From Octopus vulgaris (Eukaryota): 64,000 nt of DNA. The stretch is taken from positions 15,128,001 through 15,192,000 of the forward strand of contig OX597825.1 in NCBI GenBank assembly GCA_951406725.2, read 5' to 3'. The notes below the pieces were generated by a model, which was given only the letters and a program-made list of their open reading frames with translations, had not been told where the DNA came from and searched no databases. Each line of letters starts with the position of its first letter. Within the stretch, counting starts at the first letter, position 1. Positions 15,631 to 62,351 of the stretch are shown one piece after another. The translations under genes and the position numbers were made by a program.

Positions 15631-16055
15631 TCGTACAGCATATCAAAATCACGAAAAGATTTGACTTCGATTTCTAACACGGCCTGCTACCATGTAACAG
15701 CTATTTGCGATAAAGGACCCGCCGTTATGGCAAATAGCTACCAATGCGGGTGCACTTGTAAAAATTTACACAAACACATACTAATACATTAATATAGCAA
15801 AAAATAATAAAAAACATGTCTTTATAAGATATTTATCTTTATTTAGAAACCTACAATGAACAGGTCACCCAGGAAACAATGTAACACTGGATACAGCCTT
15901 ATACAGGGTACAACCTTAAAGTTGACACCGTTCGGTGCAACGAAAGTTTATTATTGGCTAAAAATAGATAGTTTTTTGATTTTGAAATTTTTCGTCAAAT
16001 AACTTCCTCCACATTGTGCCACTCATCTGAAGTACATATGTATTTCAACAATTTT

Positions 16056-16472
16056 TTATTTCTTTATTGCTCACAAGGGGACTAACATAGAGGGGGCAAA
16101 CAAGGACAGACAAACGGATTAAGTCGATTACATCGACCCCAGTGCGTAATTGGTACTTAATTTATCGACCCCGAAAGGATGAAAGGCAAAGTCGACCTCG
16201 GCGGAATTTGAATTCAGAAAGTAATGGAAGACGAAATACCTATTTCTTCACTACCCACAAGGGGCTAATCACAGAGAGAACAAACATGGACAGACAAACG
16301 GATTAAGTCGATTATATCGATCCCAGTGCGTAACTTGTACTTGTTTAATCGACCTCGAAAGGATGAAAGGCAATGTCAACCTCGGCGGAATTTGAACTCA
16401 GAACGTAACGACAGACGAACTACCGCTAAAGCATTTCACCCGGCGTGCTAACGATTCTGCCAGCTCGCCACC
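16056..16472 (-). mobile_element. Meta-domain tRNA-SINE (family C), dimer
   Basis: One head (GGTGGCGAGCTGGCAGAATCGTTAGCACGCCGGG) and two bodies carrying GAGGTCGACTTTGCCTTTCATCCTTTCGGGGTCGATAAATTAAGTACC. Junction at 16240/16241. Imperfect TSD TTTCA(A/G)CAATTT. Confidence 0.9.
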
Positions 16473-16971
16473 TTTCAGCAATTTCTATGAAATACACTCC
16501 TTGAGCATAAACAAAAATCCTCTTCCCGGTTGACAATAACGTATATGTCAGATTGTTGCATAAGTTCTAACCGTTTTGATAAAAGAAACCGGAAAGGTTT
16601 CAAATGATTTCATCAGCATCTGCTTCTCCCAAAAAGCATTCTTTCGATAAAAACACGTTGATCTCATAAGTGTAACGTGGTGGAAATATACGTAATTACC
16701 AAACTTTTATTCATAAGACCATTTAGTATTTCCCTTTTTTTTGTTTTTTTCTTTGTTTTTTTTTTTGCATTTCAGTTAATACATTTGTACCCCAAATTGC
16801 GCACAAGCGCATATGTAAAATGACGTTCATTATTATTATTTTTTTATCATTCTTTCCTGATATCAAAATAAGAAGTATATTGAAAAATTAAATATAAAAA
16901 TTGAGCGGGGAGTTGTGATACTAAGGGTCAAAAATGGGCGTTTGGCCAAAATGGGTGGAGAACCTTTGGAC

Positions 16972-27121: not shown

Positions 27122-27335
27122 AAAGTTTATCCAAACAAGAAAATACAAAAGAACACAACAACGCGAGGACGTGGAACAAATATAGTATTATTGGACGCTC
27201 AGGAAAGAAGGGAAGAAGGAGGTTTTAACGTTTCGAGCGGAGCTCTTCGTCGGAAACATAGGAGAAGGAAACATCCCGAGAAGGGAAGACAGAGGAAAAG
27301 AATAGCCAACGGTACACACGAGGTCACATTTTGAA
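27122..27335 (-). mobile_element. Penelope-like pLTR-type fragment carrying a hammerhead-like motif
   Basis: Abuts (TA)n and contains the motif at 27222-27257. The right boundary is uncertain. Confidence 0.55.
27222..27257 (-). ncRNA. Minimal type-I hammerhead ribozyme-like motif (U4C core)
   Basis: GTTT-CCGACGA-A-GAGC-TCC-GCTC-GAAA-CGTT-A-AAAC. Confidence 0.6.
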
Positions 27336-29632: not shown

Positions 29633-29805
29633 AAAATATTAGGGAATAAATCCAAAATTACAGGGAAAAATCAGATTTAGGATTAAATCCAATTTTATAG
29701 TAAAATATTATATAATATTAATTCGAGACAAAACCACTATTTTGCAAATCAAACAAGGAAAGACTTAATCAATACATAAAAAATTTTAATATAAAGTAAA
29801 TAAAG

Positions 29806-29836
<31 letters not shown>

Positions 29837-29930
29837 ATATTTACTTTATATTAAAATTTTTTATGTATTGATTAAGTCTTTCCTTGTTTGATTTGCAAAA
29901 TAGTGGTTTTGTCTCGAATTAATATTATAT
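29628..29930. repeat. (TA)n-embedded element with a perfect 93-bp inverted repeat
   Basis: Arms 29710-29802 and 29838-29930 are exact reverse complements with a 35-bp (AAAT)n spacer. A related single arm lies at about 63875-63950. Confidence 0.9.
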
Positions 29931-33079: not shown

Positions 33080-33826
33080 TTGTGTTTATTTATACACCAC
33101 ACTATAAATAAAATCGCTGAACAAAATAGTGGCGATATAGAATTGGATGATATGCGATGGATCTTTACCAATGGATCATTGATGTTTATAAATTCATCAT
33201 TTAATGTGATGGTTACGTATTCTTTGAAATATCTAAACAAAAATATATTCGGGAAATATTTCGGAGAGATTTCGATTCGTTGCTTCCTTAAATTACTTGG
33301 AGTGGATCTTCACTTAACACGTTAACAAAATTGCAAATACAAATCCTTGTATTTGCAGGAAGACGAAATAAGTAACAAGTATATTAATTCGCGATAGAAA
33401 ATTAACATGCATTCAGAGGCAGAACTATCCTTTAAACATAAATGCGTCATGTTTAATGGATAAATATAATTGTAATTGTATTTTTCAGTGAAAAACCATG
33501 TTTATTAAATGTAATAGAAATATATTTACATGCATCTAATCAATAATCGCTTCAACGTTTCATAGCTACCTCATAATCTTCGTGTATTTTTTATTAAAAG
33601 ATATTATGGAAATGACGTTTTACGTATATTGTTGACACGTTTATTTACAACCCAAACACGTGACGGATTAGGTGAAACTGACATTGGCAATATGCTCAGA
33701 ATCGCATTTCAATACAAAGATTGTTTTGATGTTTTTGAAATTGCTACTAGTGCCACCTACATTCTCTCTTAACGAACGCGCTTGCACAAAATTTGAATTC
33801 GTACTTTATTATTTCTGCTGATTTAA

Positions 33827-34400
33827 CGTAGCGAATTGGCAGAAACGTTAGCACGCCGTTAGTATTTCGTCTGCCGCTACGTTCTAATTTCAAATTCCGC
33901 CGGGGTCGACCTTGCCTTGCATCATTCCGGGGTCGATTAAATAAGTGCAAGTTACGACTGGGGTGGATATAATCGACTTAATTCGTTTGTCTGTCCTTGT
34001 TTGTCCAATTTGTGTTTAGTCCCTCGTGGGTAGTAATGAAATAAGTATTTCCCCTGCCGTTATGTTCAGAGTTCAAATTCCGCCGAGGTCGACTTTGCCT
34101 TTCATCCTTTCGGGGTCGATAATTTAAGTACCATTTACGCACTGGGGTCGATATATTCGACCTAATCCGTTTGTATGTCCTTGTTTGTCCCTTCTGTGTT
34201 TAGCCCCTTGTGAGTAGTAAAGAGATAGGTATTTCATCTGCCACTATGTTCTGAGTTCAAATTCCGCTGATGTCGACATTGCTTTTTATCCTTTTGGAGT
34301 CGATTAAATAAGTACCAGTTACACACTGGGGTCGATGTAATCATCTTAATCCCTCGTTTGTCTCCTCTATGTTTAGCCCCCTGTGGGCAGTAAAGAAATA
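33827..34400 (+). mobile_element. Meta-domain SINE (family C), trimer
   Basis: One head and three bodies, with junctions at about 34043/34044 and 34227/34228 (unit about 184 bp). Confidence 0.9.
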
Positions 34401-34538
34401 AATATGCTCATAATTTCATTTTGATACAAAGATTGTTTTGATGTTTTTGAAATTGCTATTAGTGCCACCTACATTTCCTCTTAAAGAACGCGCTTGCACA
34501 AAATTTCAATTCGTACTTTATTATTTCTTGATATTTAA

Positions 34539-34798
34539 GGTGGCGAGCTGGTAAAATAGTTAGCACGCCAGGCGAAATGCTTAGAGGTATTTCGTCTGCC
34601 GCTACGTTCTGAGTTCAAATTCTGCCGAGGTCGACTATGCCTTTCATCCTTTCGGAGTCGATTAAATAAGTACCAGTTACGCACTGGGGTCGATATAATC
34701 GACTTAAACCGTTTGCCTGCCCTTGTTCGTCTCCTCTGTGTTTAGCACCTTGTGGGTAGTAAAGAAATGTGTATTTCTTCTGCCTTTAATTTCTGAGT
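34539..34798 (+). mobile_element. Meta-domain SINE (family C), monomer plus start of a second unit
   Basis: Head GGTGGCGAGCTGG. After AAAGAAAT the body restarts with GTATTTCTTCTGCC...TTCTGAGT. Confidence 0.85.
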
Positions 34799-35448
34799 AG
34801 AAAAGTCGCTGAGGCTGGTCCCAAAAATCTAAAGTAAGAGCATTAAATATTTTGGGAGAAAGCAAACGAATATCTACGACAAGAAAGACAGAAGAAAAAC
34901 GGAAAAATATTACTCAATTCCAAATACAAACAACAAGAAAATAACAACAGGTGTTTTTCGACTAAGAGAGACAAATCAAGTTGAGCTTGCGTGTGTAGAG
35001 TGAAAGCCTTGAGACAGGAACATAGATGAACAGTAGAGATGAAAATCAAGAGACAAGAAAAAGTAATGCTTCGTGTCTGGCAGTCGAACCAGGAAAAGCT
35101 TGGTCGAACACCTGTCACGTGGAAGGAAAGGAGAAAAGTAGGGCGCAGATGAATTGAAGAATAAGGGGGAGTACGAGAAGGAGAAAAAGATCAAAGAGAC
35201 ATGGAGAAAGTACAAGGGAGATAAACGACGAAAATGTGTAGATTAAAGAAAGTGAAGGCCAAGAATTGTGAGAGAGGGGAAACGTGAAAACGAAAGGAGG
35301 AAAGAAAGATGTAGGTAGATGGGAGAAAGGAAAACTATGAGGGGGATTAAACGAAGGAGTAAAACAGTTGTACAGGATTTAGATATATACATACAGGATT
35401 AGGAAAAAATGTACGTACACCTCAATATATATATATATATATATATAT

Positions 35449-38722: not shown

Positions 38723-39011
38723 TTAGAAGAAATGAGGTAATCAGAAGATCGGATGGTTCATATTTATAGATATTTATTTATATATTACAATTTTTACATA
38801 TATATATCATATCATTCAGATCATATCATTCGGATTATTAGCGCTTTCTCCCATTCCAGTGAGGTTTTCAATTTTTTTATTTGAAAACCCAACTGGAATG
38901 GGAGAAAGCGCTTATAACCTGAATGATATGATATATATATATGTAAAAGATGTAATATATAAATAAATATCTATAAATATGAACCATCCGATCTTCTGAT
39001 TACCTCATTTC

Positions 39012-39017
<6 letters not shown>
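38723..39017. mobile_element. (TA)n-flanked long hairpin element (inverted pLTR-like)
   Basis: Arms of about 140 bp (38723-38871 and 38881-39017) are near-perfect reverse complements with (TA)n on both sides. Each arm carries a hammerhead-like motif at the centre. Confidence 0.85.
38877..38917 (+). ncRNA. Hammerhead-like motif with compensatory U3-A8 core
   Basis: TTAT-TTGAAAA-CCCAACTGGAATGGGA-GAAA-GCGC-TT-ATAA. The mirror copy in the left arm reads GAAA-GCGC-TA-ATAA. Confidence 0.45.
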
Positions 39018-39740: not shown

Positions 39741-40222
39741 ATGTCTGTATAGGCATGTGTGTATGTGCACTGTGTGTTTGCTTCCCATAAATGAGGGTAT
39801 GCGTTGAAACACTTTTCTACAGTCATAATGGCTTCTATTCCTACTCAAAAATTATCTATTACCCCTGTTAGTATCTATTTTAATATAATTATTGTAGTTA
39901 GTGTTTAAATTGTATTTTAAAAACTATGTAAAGTAAATTTATTTAAGTGCACATTAATCCTTTACGTGATTTATGAAAAAAACCTCATAATTGCATGCTG
40001 ATATTTAAAGTGCTACCGTTAAGTATGTAGTATAATTGCAATATTTTAATATTTGAGTTTGTATAGTTTTTTGGAAATCCCAATATAAGTGCGGTTTTCA
40101 TTTTAAGAAGGTATGTTGCCTCGAGTGAGTTTGTTAATGATATTACAGAATTCATGTTTCATAACGCACTACAGCGTGCACAATTGTTATTAAAACACCC
40201 TTAATTTAGTTTTGAGGAATCA

Positions 40223-40261
<39 letters not shown>

Positions 40262-40262
<1 letters not shown>

Positions 40263-40546
40263 ATTTACAAGATAAGGGCAGAAGAAAAATTCTAATGCCA
40301 AATATGCCGAAACAAAAAAATTGTCGATAACCATTAAAATTTATGCGTCTCGAAACAAACCGATAGAAATCTCAAAAAATTCGTTATTACCGTACTGGTC
40401 CAATTTCGGGGTTATTTCATAAGAAATTTCCCCCTTTTCAGCGGCAAATACGCGAGATATAAATGAAATACTTACTCATACCCATGCCATTTTTTGATAT
40501 GCTGGCCATTGATAAAATTTTTCACCGAAAAAAATTTTATCATATA

Positions 40547-40552
<6 letters not shown>
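40262..40552 (-). mobile_element. (TA)n-embedded short element carrying a hammerhead
   Basis: Unique ~290 bp between two (TA)n tracts. Contains the motif at 40387-40447 and a hairpin TGATAAAATTTTT...AAAAATTTTATCA at 40510-40542. Confidence 0.65.
40387..40447 (-). ncRNA. Type-I hammerhead ribozyme motif (G8A core substitution, GUA site)
   Basis: TTGCCG-CTGAAAA-GGGG-GAAATTTCTTATGAAATAA-CCCC-GAAA-TTGG-A-CCAG-TA-CGGTAA. All three stems pair. Confidence 0.75.
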
Positions 40553-40584
<32 letters not shown>

Positions 40585-40987
40585 GATAATAACACGGGGA
40601 TGGATATTCAATGGCGTAATTAATGCTCATAGCATATCTTGCATATCCTCATGTTCTATGTTCATTAGTTAGGAAGTTTTCATATTCATAATTTGTCATT
40701 TAATATTATTCTCAATATCTACGAATCCAGATTAAAACATATTAAGAATAATCATAAATAATATCTTTTGAATGTGAAACATGCTTAACTAATAAATATA
40801 TGGAATGCAGAAACATATGTTGTAAGCATCAATAAAACCATTACATTTCCATCGACATGGTATTATCGTTATCATGTAACAATGAGCACAGAAGCTTTGA
40901 AGACCTAATTCTGAGGCTGTTTCCCAAAAGACACACACTCACATACACTCTCTCACTCACACACAAACACTTATGTATACACACACA

Positions 40988-41018
<31 letters not shown>

Positions 41019-41025
41019 TTATGTA

Positions 41026-41173
41026 TACGCAGTCTGATCAATAAGTATCCGGACTGTTTCCATAGTACCGAAGCTAAAGCACGCAGAGTGACCTCGATTA
41101 GCAAAGATTGACCTTGAACTCCGCTATGTATGCGCAATAAGTTTTAACGTTCCTGATCACCTTTGATGTTTAT
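41026..41173 (+). mobile_element. Duplicate mariner left end
   Basis: TACGCAGTCTGATCAATAAGTATCCGGAC... is a diverged direct copy of 41223-41372. Confidence 0.8.
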
Positions 41174-41222
41174 AATACTTATGTATAACAGACACTATCC
41201 TTCTCTTACACACTTATATATA

Positions 41223-42090
41223 TACGGGGTCTGATCAATAAGTACCCCGCTCTTTTTCCATAGTACCGAAGCTAAAGCACGCAGAGTGACGCCGATAAGC
41301 AAAGATTGAGCTTGATCTATGCTGTATATGCGCACTAAGTTTTAACGTTGTTGCTCACTTTTTATGTTTATAGCAGTGCTTGGAAGAAAGGTGTGTAGCG
41401 TGTGATCGTCTCATTGACCGTAACAAAGTTGTCATGTCGTCACCTACTCAGAAGCCTACGCAACGTTGCAGAAAGTGTATGGAGTAGAGGTTTTGAGTTT
41501 CACACAAGTGTACGAGAGATTTAGACATTTCCAAGATGGCCAAAAAATGTCGATATTGACGAATGTTCTGGGAGATCAGGAACTATAAAAACTGAGTGAA
41601 ACATCGAAGGTGTGCATACGGCTGTGAGGGGAAATCATCGAATCACCATCCATGAGTTATCAGAGGATGTGCAGATTAGTTACGGTTCAGTTCCGTCCGT
41701 TATCACTAAAGATTTGGTTATGAGACGGGTGTCTGCCAAGTTTGTGCCAAAACGGCTTTTAGTTAACCAAAAACTCACTCGGGTTTCAGTTGCGCAAGCT
41801 CTCGTTGATTGTGTAAAAAAATTTGAAAAATCTTTCAAAACTTTGCGTAGGCCTCTGACCTGATATTCCCACGCATTTGGCAAAGTTTGATGCAGATTCT
41901 CTGCTTAACTTCTTCATGTTCAATGCAACGATCACATGCTGCACACCTTCCGTCTTAGCACTGTTGTAAACAGCGGAAGCGAGCTAGAACTTTAAAACTT
42001 AGTGCGTATGCATAACGGAATCTATCTGTGCCTAGCGGCTTTACTCTGCAAGTTTTAGCCTCCTAACTATGGCAACAATCCGAATACTTA
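41223..42090 (+). mobile_element. Non-autonomous mariner with long inverted arms
   Basis: TA-CGGGGTCTGATCAATAAGTA terminus. Transposase N-terminus SEAYATLQKVYG...QVYERFRHFQDG and NHRITIHELSEDVQISYGSV...MRRVSAKFVPKRL (WVPHEL-like linker). 41860-42090 is an inverted copy of the left end. No DDD domain. Confidence 0.85.
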
Positions 42091-42128
42091 TATATATATG
42101 CAGAGATAGAGAGAGAAGATCAGAGAGA

Positions 42129-48185: not shown

Positions 48186-48796
48186 ACTGCTGTTTTTACT
48201 AGTGCTATTATTACAAGAGATGCAACCAGCATATTGAGGAGAGTGACGATTTTTAAGGCCTACCGCCATGCAATTTGAGAGACATAGTATATGTATCATC
48301 ATTTATTTTGTTTATTTATACATTTATACTTTATTTTCAAGAGATCTACTCTAGAATACTTGAAAAATCTGTACCGCTTGTATTTCTTCATGGTAACCTC
48401 TCAGCACGTTTAATCGTCGGCTTATCATATTTTCATACGATTTCTAGGAGGCATCCTTCCATATAGACCTACATACATGTAAAGGTTCATAGAGCCACAG
48501 ATTTATATAATTTTGCATAGATTCCCATTATCGTATAAACTCAATTCATTCCCAGATGTGTACTTTCCACATTAGAATATTTTGTGTGTTCGTTGTAAGA
48601 TTTGTTTGCCTCAGGGCATCATTTTCTTTATCTTGTTCAGCGTCTACTAAAAGGAGCGCCCCTTGTATTGTGCTCATACGTAAATGCATGCTTCTTATAT
48701 AAATCTTTAAAAATTTAGTTTCCGATACTGGCAGATGAAATAGACATACAACACCTCTGGTCAAATGAAATAGCTTTAAAATTTGTTAAGAGTATA

Positions 48797-49394
48797 TATT
48801 TCTTTACTACCAACAAGGGGCTAAACATAGAGGGGACAAATAAGGACAGACAAAGTGATTACGTCGATTACATCGACCCCAGTGCGAAACTGGTACTTTA
48901 TTTATCGACCCCGACAGGATGGAAGGCAAAGTCGACCTCGGTGGAATTTGAAGTCAGAACGTAACAACAGACGAAATATCTATTTATTTACTACCCACAC
49001 GGGGCTAAACACAGAGGGGACAGACAACGACAGACAAATGGATTAAGTTGATTACATCGACCCAGTGCGAAAATGGTACTTTATTTATCGACCCCGAGAT
49101 GATGAAAAGCAAATTCGACCTCGGCGGAATTTGAACTCGGAACGTAGCGGCAGACGAAATATCTATTTCTTTACTGCCCACACGGGGCTAAACACAGAGA
49201 GGACAAGCAAGGACAGAAAAACGGATTAAGTCGATTACATCGACCCCAGTGCGTAACTGGTACTCATTTAATCGACCCCGAGAGGATGAAAGGCAAAGTC
49301 GACCTCGGCGAAATTTGAACTCAGAACGTAGCGGCAGACGAAATACCACTAAGCATTTCGCTGGGTGTGTTAACGCTTCTGCCAGCTCGCCGCC
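48797..49394 (-). mobile_element. Meta-domain SINE (family C), trimer
   Basis: One head at the right end, junctions at 48980/48981 and 49163/49164. Imperfect TSD ATTTGTTAAGAGTATAT / ATTTGTTACGAATATAT. Confidence 0.92.
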
Positions 49395-50065
49395 ATTTGT
49401 TACGAATATATTGTAACCCTAACTTGCGAAAGTATGTTTCCTCTCTGAAATATATTTATATTATACATATTATATGTCAATGTTTGTAGACAGTGTTAGA
49501 TGTTAATTATATTTTTTCCATTTTTAGAGGATATTCATATATCATGATTTGTTTATATTCGGTAAGACTCAATGTGCGCTCATGGGAATATTTTGAAATT
49601 CTTCGGTCAAATTTGTTTACCAAAACACGAATGGAAATGATTAATGTATCATCTTTTGGAGAACATTTTCAGGTTAAACTATGTCTTCCAGGATATTTAC
49701 AATATGCATTTCTATTCTTCAGGTCTCATATATATTCTTGCTTTGTATTCTTTATCATTCTGTTTTTAAATAATCAAATGTTCTATTTGCTTCTAATAAA
49801 GCAGTAACAACCTACTATTCCTCACAGAACTAAGTAGAAAGGTTGTTCATTTAATAGCATTTCTTTAATCTATATTAACAGACTAACACTGGAAATGTTT
49901 ACATTATTACTTTGGCTTTGATTACTGATTTTGTTTTTCACACTGACTACCAAATTTTCTAATTTAACAGACAGTTATTTAGTATCATCTAGTAGTCAAA
50001 TTTAACTGAAACCTAAATATAACATTTGAATTATGCAGGAAACAATATGGTAATCCCAGCAATAT

Positions 50066-61005: not shown

Positions 61006-61898
61006 TTAGATATATAGATAGATAGATAGAAAATGAGATAAAACTTACTTGGAAAAGGATGCGCGGCGTTTGATCATATAATAATATAAATAATATATAT
61101 ATGTGTATGCATATATACATGTATCTATATTCCTCTCTTCTCCCATTATTCTATCCTATTACTCTTTCGTTTCCTCCCAGTTATTCTTCTACCTCTCCTT
61201 CTCCACTCCTGTCTTTTCTCACTTATCCTATCTCCAATCTTTCCGTCTCCCCTTCACAATTCTCTGTCTGTCACTCTCTCTCCCTCGCTCTTCCTCCCTT
61301 GCTCAGGTGGCTCACACGTGACCATCGACCATCTTTCTTCTTCTAACTAGTGTTTCTTTCTTTCTCTCCGTTGTTCTTGTCTGTCTCCTGTCCATGCTTG
61401 ATTTACGCGTTCGCCACCACAACCTCATTTAGGCTAAGCAGCCCTTCCTGCTTGTTTTCATTGTCTTGTATGGTTGGTTTATTTGGTGGGTAGTGTTGAG
61501 AGACTTAATAGCAGTAACTTGAACGGACTGATCGGGAAGCTGTCCAAAGTACTAAATGTATATCAAAATCACAATTTCGGATGCATTGTCAGTATTCTAA
61601 TTCAAGGTATGCAGTGTATTCATCAAACATCTTACTTTTTCAAGTAATAATTACAGTTGTATGCATTACATATTTGATATGACATTTTGTATTCAGCCAC
61701 ATAAGCCTGCGAGTTAATTTGTAAGTGGTCGTTCGTCTTGTGAAAATAGCAGCTTAAATTCCCCTTAAATTGTGCTCACTCATCTTTGTAAATATCATCT
61801 GGAGTCTTGTTGATGTTTGGAGCCCGACCATATGAAACTACTAGTCGGACGTTATAAAACAGACCTATAATCAAAAGTGTTGGAAGGAAGTCCATTCT

Positions 61899-62351
61899 TA
61901 TTTCTTTATTGCCCACAAGGTACTAAACATAGAGGGGACAAACAAGGGTAGACAAATAGATTCAGTCGATTATATCGACCCCAGTGCGTAACTGGTACTT
62001 AATTTATCGACCCCGAAAGGATGAAAGGTAAAGTCGACCTCGGCGGAATTTGAACTCAGAACGTAACGTCAGACGAAATACGGCTAAGTATTTCACCCGG
62101 TGTGCTAACGTTTCTTATTTCTTTACTATCCACCTGGGGCTACACACAGAGGGGACAAACAAGGACAGACAAACGGATTTAGTCGATTATATCGACACTA
62201 GTGCGTAACTGGTACTTATTTCATCGACCCCGAAAGGATGAAAGGCAAAGTCGACCTCGGTGGAATTTTAACTCAGAACGCAGCGACAGACGAAATACGG
62301 CTAGGTATTGCACCCGGCGTGCTAACGTTTCTGCCAGCTCGCTGCATTAAG
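61899..62351 (-). mobile_element. Meta-domain SINE (family C), dimer with an alternative junction
   Basis: TSD GGAAGTCCATTCT at 61886-61898 and 62352-62364. The second unit restarts at GAAACGTTAGCAC (junction 62114/62115). Confidence 0.92.

Follow-up and report, generated by a model that had tools for sequence, protein, structure and literature searches.

A likely inactive hammerhead motif of type I between two (TA)n tracts of Octopus vulgaris, resembling the ribozymes of Hydra-clade PLEs

The window analysed in this work, a stretch of 64,000 nucleotides of Octopus vulgaris DNA (contig OX597825.1, positions 15,128,001 to 15,192,000), is AT-rich and dense with microsatellites and SINE-like repeats. 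On its minus strand, a unit of 289 bp with 31% GC (40263..40551) lies between two (TA)n tracts, and inside this unit positions 40387-40447 have the architecture of a type I hammerhead, a genuine motif in which three helices are arranged around the core and the structure is open at helix I (Table 1). The unit contains a piece of 104 nt upstream of the motif, and on the downstream side it continues for 130 nt beyond the cut. Helix I pairs 40447-40442 with 40392-40387 (6 bp, one of them G·U), and helix II is built from a G run (40434-40430) and a C4 stretch (40411-40408) that enclose an inner hairpin (40427-40414). U4, G5, A6, A9, the G10.1-C11.1 pair, G12, A13, A14, the A15.1-U16.1 pair and H17 are all present. 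Each of the elements named in an earlier sequence-only reading of this DNA (the stems, the core, the GAAA and the GUA) was found on the minus strand at the position given for it. The same reading had described helix II as four G paired to four C and prolonged by a second stem; the G/C stem and its extension do exist, but the run has five G rather than four and an A-rich internal loop intervenes, leaving no direct stacking of the two parts. The unpaired U1.7 and the terminal A of loop 2 sit at the positions of canonical tertiary contacts, and a possible role of U1.7 in such contacts has been described (PMC11875169). As both bases are frequent in the surrounding DNA, the case for them as tertiary-contact bases in this motif is weak.

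Table 1. Elements of the hammerhead motif and the (TA)n tracts on either side of the 289-bp unit (window coordinates).
Feature	Position	Strand	Numbering
Helix I, 5' arm (2.6-2.1), with G2.4·U1.4 wobble	40442..40447	-	hammerhead numbering
Core C3-U4-G5-A6-A7-A8-A9	40435..40441	-	hammerhead numbering
Helix II: G run/C4, 4 bp, G10.1-C11.1; A-rich internal loop; inner 5-bp hairpin	40408..40434	-	
G12-A13-A14, intact	40405..40407	-	hammerhead numbering
Helix III: 11-nt odd-length quasi-palindrome, U15.2·G16.2 wobble	40394..40404	-	
Predicted cleavage site after A17 (40393), GUA triplet	40392..40393	-	hammerhead numbering
Helix I, 3' arm (1.1-1.6), and unpaired U1.7 at 40386	40386..40392	-	hammerhead numbering
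(TA)n tract, downstream of the unit	40222..40262		
(TA)15 tract, upstream of the unit	40552..40581		

In this motif A8 (40436) faces C3 (40441) and no Watson-Crick 3-8 pair can be drawn, while in the active fold of the hammerhead C3 and G8 form such a pair (PMC3884650; PMC11167929). G12 and the 2'-OH of G8 have been proposed as the general base and acid of the reaction. Since A8 is unable to pair with C3, the hammerhead at 40387-40447 is likely to be catalytically inactive, and given the lack of a 3-8 Watson-Crick pair we file it only as hammerhead-derived, not as an active hammerhead. It had been claimed earlier that G8A alone should inactivate the ribozyme. In a hammerhead from a Penelope-like element (PLE) a single G8C or C3G change abolishes cleavage and the double change partly rescues it (PMC11167929), which is in favor of that claim, but the inactivity of G8A itself is reached by analogy with these mutants: no assay of G8A in a hammerhead was found in the literature searched.

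The core is equally one change away from the published U3-A8 variant of PLEs, from which it differs in carrying C at position 3. Two sources, with counts made by eye, help to choose between these routes: the table of 56 metazoan PLE rows of Cervera & de la Peña 2014 (PMC4209133), and Files S1 and S2 of Craig et al. 2021 (PMC8557442), where we considered the 25 Hydra-clade families with a listed ribozyme, counting a family listed twice in File S2 once and leaving out the Chlamys and PLE-X rows. Because C3/G8 occurs in 53 of the 56 metazoan rows (the others being two U3/A8 and one U3/G8, with C3/A8 in none) and in 25/25 Hydra families, G8A is likely to be the core lesion, rather than U3C. These counts agree with the earlier proposal that the motif has decayed from a repeat bearing a hammerhead, with G8A as its likely lesion; "decay" is read here from other families and not from the motif's own, since no paralog was found in the window or in the collections searched. 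There are also softer departures, namely the wobbles U15.2·G16.2 (40403/40395) in helix III and G2.4·U1.4 in helix I. As C15.2-G16.2 is present in 25/25 Hydra families, U15.2 probably represents another lesion. The description of the motif as one substitution from canonical thus holds for the invariant core alone, and not once this likely second lesion and the wobble in helix I are considered.

The architecture is beyond chance. A strict descriptor applied to both strands of the window matched 40387-40447 and nothing else, and among the 78 candidates of a relaxed scan this motif was the best (score 10 vs 8 for the next) and shared its sequence with none of the others. When a literature-style descriptor was used, which tolerated a single mismatch to either of the known cores and scored the G8A and U3C routes alike (one mismatch each), two matches were obtained in the window, 40387-40447 and another with its core starting at 27253. 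An equally complete match appeared in 0/100 block-wise dinucleotide shuffles of the window. In 3045 dinucleotide shuffles of 500-nt blocks, any match was obtained in 304 and at least 14 paired positions, the count of the motif, in 8; these rates flatter the motif somewhat, because the descriptor was written after the motif had been seen. The stability of the 61-mer is unremarkable (z -1.49; 20/200 shuffles fold equally well), and its minimum-energy fold is not a hammerhead, C3-U4-G5 being paired in it with helix III's 3' strand. An Rfam search of the 289-nt region at E<=10 returned five matches and no hammerhead, and none was found either among the 150 of 240 matches listed for the whole window.

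Helix III can be drawn as 5 bp closed by a single nucleotide, the central A (40399), or as 4 bp with a 3-nt loop. In the monomer, the predicted energy of the hammerhead fold is -14.3 kcal/mol vs -15.8 kcal/mol for the minimum, and helix III of the genomic version is predicted to form with a probability of 0.06, as 4 bp with a 3-nt loop. When two copies were cofolded, the predicted minimum was a strand-swapped hammerhead dimer at -42.3 kcal/mol, compared with -31.6 kcal/mol for two separate molecules (2 x -15.8), a calculation that leaves concentration outside the model; helix III by itself is predicted to form a self-duplex of -8.9 kcal/mol, mismatched (A·A) at its centre. Dimeric PLE hammerheads have been described by Lünse et al. 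(through the review PMC6765202). The idea that a 1-nt loop implies dimeric folding is right in so far as the predictions favour the dimer, but not in that it would be forced, because helix III can open to 4 bp with a 3-nt loop, as 6% of the monomers are predicted to do; according to these models the dimer is not strictly required. The repair of A8 to G alone, suggested as the assay for this motif, does not seem to be the right test: with G8 restored alone helix III of the monomer is predicted to remain at about 0.04, and it is C at 15.2 that raises it to about 0.55-0.6, as 4 bp with a 3-nt loop.

Among known systems, the closest likeness is with the ribozymes of Hydra-clade PLEs (PMC8557442). 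Helix III in the 25 families consists of 4 bp and a 1-nt loop in 16, 4 bp and a 2-nt loop in six, and 3 bp and a 3-nt loop in three; it opens with A-C and closes with G-U in 25/25, and the cleavage triplet is GUA in 11/25. The pattern A-C...G-U over 9-10 nt is our own reading of File S2, not a criterion stated by its authors. As 4 bp closed by 1 nt is the form seen in 16/25 families, such a loop probably reflects a trait of the clade and not damage, and its origin by deletion from an even palindrome, which we had considered, was dropped on the same count. The target is (TA)n for 26/27 Hydra families, one from Octopus bimaculoides (Hydra-1_Obim). Measured to the end of the element from a point 20 nt 5' of helix I, the distance is 87-210 nt in 23/25 families (the outliers having 425 and 2680), in a column whose meaning was checked against one element; the matching distance in the 40263-40551 unit is 205 nt, taking the TA tract as the end of the element. 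In the two displayed Hydra 3' ends, judged by eye, the stop codon precedes the ribozyme by more than 100 nt, with which an upstream piece of 104 nt that has no ORF is in keeping.

The motif is then like the Hydra-clade ribozymes in its type I topology, its odd-length quasi-palindromic helix III closing to 1 nt, its GUH triplet, its (TA)n context and its location no more than about 210 nt from the 3' end. It is unlike them in having A8 and not G8, U15.2 and not C, and a helix III of 11 nt vs 9-10, one pair longer (5 bp with 1 nt is found in 0/25); its helix II is in two parts separated by an internal loop, as in 0/25 of those listed, its sequence matches none of the 25 by eye, the octopus family included, and no ORF is attached to it. 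The motif resembles a Hydra ribozyme, and we do not file it as a proven member of the clade. The (TA)n flanks are weak evidence, because gaps of similar size between TA tracts are frequent here (11/39 of those in the window span 150-500 nt).

The single ORF of Hydra-clade PLEs encodes a RT with RWK and DKT motifs and, at the C terminus, an endonuclease of the GIY-YIG type without CCHH. No recognisable ORF was present in the 289-bp unit, as expected for a 5'-truncated copy. From the 233 complexity-filtered ORFs of the window (at least 50 aa), the 82 longest were compared with Pfam and gave no credible match, apart from one weak DUF below cutoff, and no RT or EN remnant was seen among them. Eight Hydra protein motifs, searched across the window, produced three unconvincing matches with one mismatch, all distant and none near the ribozyme. 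ARAGORN found 0 tRNAs in the window. A second copy of the unit was looked for in the window with blastn and nhmmer, which returned only the unit itself and short chance matches, and no head-to-tail tandem repeats of the unit were present there. A degenerate 20-nt pattern had 38 matches in GTDB genomes, vs about 35 expected by chance, with the upstream core in 0/38; blastn of the unit against plasmid and phage collections gave no match. A frame of 44 aa across the core, chosen since spurious ORFs of paralogs would reveal bases 3, 7 and 8, had no matches in the protein sets searched. Short motifs of the unit had no meaningful match in the supplements of PMC8557442 and PMC13282606, files in which line breaks can conceal matches. 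Literature searches, few of which were aimed at cephalopod hammerheads, turned up no account of the family of this unit, nor of a hammerhead with a natural C3·A8 core or of one gated by editing. The family of the unit may already be listed in the O. vulgaris repeat library (Zenodo) or in other supplements.

Our findings suggest, with fair but not full assurance, that the motif is the inactive, decayed ribozyme of a 5'-truncated PLE, probably Hydra-like, that was likely inserted into (TA)n. If so, it is likely of a kind already known, a solo, decayed PLE-derived hammerhead and an ordinary genomic fossil; solo ribozymes left by truncated PLEs are the common state (PMC4209133). With the minimal and variant PLE hammerheads of metazoans (PMC4209133) it shares dispersed single copies, a palindromic helix III, a predicted dimer and AU-rich flanks, and it differs from them in that helix III is absent or very short in most, which also have a base other than G added after A9; C3/A8 occurs in 0/56. 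We hypothesize that a parent transcript carrying two 3' ends of the element would use its palindromic helix III to fold as a strand-swapped dimer, in which that helix would comprise 10 bp flanking an A·A mismatch at the centre. Given an intact C3-G8 pair, G12 and the 2'-OH of G8 would catalyse the cut after GUA17 and trim the retrotransposon RNA, which the RT/GIY-YIG protein of the parent would then copy into (TA)n, starting at the 3' end. Copying may have halted early, leaving about 290 bp of 3' non-coding sequence, in which position 8 would later have changed from G to A, position 15.2 from C to U and perhaps also position 2.4, all by neutral transitions. The role of the ribozyme in PLE mobility is itself unsettled, as catalytic mutants still insert in vitro (PMC11167929). 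Having no nearby partner and bearing neutral lesions, the present copy most likely does nothing.

Other origins have to be weighed against this one. The unit could stem from a non-LTR retrozyme, as a solo monomer that has decayed, and not be the 3' end of a PLE, an unlikely origin in our view. Retrozymes are tandem repeats of 170-400 nt that spread as circular RNA (PMC7229834), and the length of 289 bp and 31% GC of the unit would fit; the 6-bp helix I, the 4 bp of helix II before the loop, the lack of an obligatory base after A9 and U1.7 resemble the canonical type I hammerheads of these elements (S. mansoni type; about 300 bp, low GC), and solo monomers have been reported (bioRxiv 2026.07.22.740005). 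The motif is nevertheless not tandem, with no tandem copy in the window, its core is broken, and its long helix III is unlike the canonical metazoan one of 1-2 bp with a loop of 2-4 nt (PMC4209133). As the same preprint derives retrozymes from PLEs, the two origins partly merge. It is likewise unlikely, to much the same degree, that a PLE of another clade (Neptune, Penelope/Poseidon or Nematis) left the motif, even with 3'-end hammerheads in all canonical PLE clades, a (TA)n bias proposed also for Neptune (PMC8557442) and 190 Penelope-like families in O. vulgaris, making up 6.83% of its genome (supplement of PMC13282606): as judged by eye from the table in PMC4209133, helix III outside the Hydra clade is short or of even length, and the only odd-length one read in its 56 rows is that of Hydra magnipapillata. 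Naiad PLEs, which target TA and occur in cephalopods, were also considered as a source and rejected, canonical hammerheads being absent from them.

The remaining alternatives concern the core, or the reality of the motif. A parent family with U3-A8, so that the lesion here would be U3 to C and not G8 to A, is improbable. This core is natural in PLEs, with about 1,300 matches in S. mansoni, one tabulated example has a core that differs by one base from that of the motif (PMC4209133), and the descriptor rates both routes at one mismatch; against it, U3-A8 appears in only 2/56 metazoan rows and 0/25 Hydra families, and those two are minimal and without a long helix III. A further possibility is that C3·A8 is functional throughout its family, being weakly active or switched on when ADAR converts A8 to inosine. 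Inosine pairs with C, and RNA editing by ADAR is heavy in coleoid cephalopods. Some activity is retained by rare natural core variants (PMC7151607). We hold it to be very improbable, given that C3/A8 is seen in 0/56 and 0/25 published examples, that a second departure exists at 15.2 in a solo copy, and that A8 is unpaired in the predicted folds, which would make it a poor ADAR substrate. More speculative still, and only barely credible, a lineage of PLEs or retrozymes not described before, possibly of cephalopods, would have C3·A8 as its consensus, along with the longer helix III and the two-part helix II; its hammerhead would stay silent until ADAR edits A8, an editing-gated ribozyme. A chance look-alike in AT-rich DNA is very unlikely as well: the descriptor was post hoc and loosely matched 304/3045 shuffles, the fold is ordinary (z -1.49), and neither a Rfam hammerhead match nor a paralog was found, but the pairing count of the motif was reached in only 8/3045 shuffles, and features outside the descriptor (the palindrome closing to 1 nt, the GUA and the distance to the end) are Hydra-like too.

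As it stands the motif matters little, because solo degenerate hammerheads from truncated PLEs number thousands in animal genomes (PMC4209133); in the giant squid, 235 Rfam hammerhead loci have been reported (PMC6962438). Its value is modest, as a handle on a possibly unlisted Hydra-like family missed by Rfam. Since its helix III is one pair longer than in any of the 25 families, such a family could serve to test whether dimerisation is obligatory. The motif would be surprising only if the C3·A8 core were family-wide.

Some minor features of the unit and the window deserve mention. A 13-bp AT-rich hairpin occupies the 5' edge of the unit (40510-40542), and a splice-donor-like hexamer lies at about 40470-40480 on the minus strand, about 25-30 nt upstream of helix I; introns are possible in PLE terminal repeats, and the hexamer is not significant because it occurs 30 times in the window. 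Adjoining the (TA)15 tract, 40582-40870 is a palindromic element of 289 bp with terminal inverted repeats of 10 nt, MITE-like in appearance. At 41020-42091 there are three related segments with inverted ends and a frame of 87 aa (41600-41860), which had no Pfam match and which we take to resemble a mariner transposase fragment. Other palindromic units of about 200-300 bp stand beside or between (TA)n tracts, at 29719-29921 and 38724-39016, with no hammerhead match inside them. The motif at 27220-27260 on the minus strand, with its core from 27253, is a second and unrelated one that resembles the minimal PLE hammerheads; it combines a U4C core, an extra A after A9, a 4-bp helix II, a 4-nt palindromic helix III, GUU and a 3-bp helix I, and has a (TA)n tract about 100 nt away. 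With its eight paired positions, it is not above chance by the descriptor alone (304/3045 shuffles match). Three repeat families, presumably octopus SINEs, were also apparent in the window; a translated frame of the main SINE had no homologue. One family, SINE-like and with tandem internal units of 184 bp, is present in eight segments (16053-16480, 33689-34814, 48793-49401 and 61895-62350 among them), and the other two have 14 and 5 segments.
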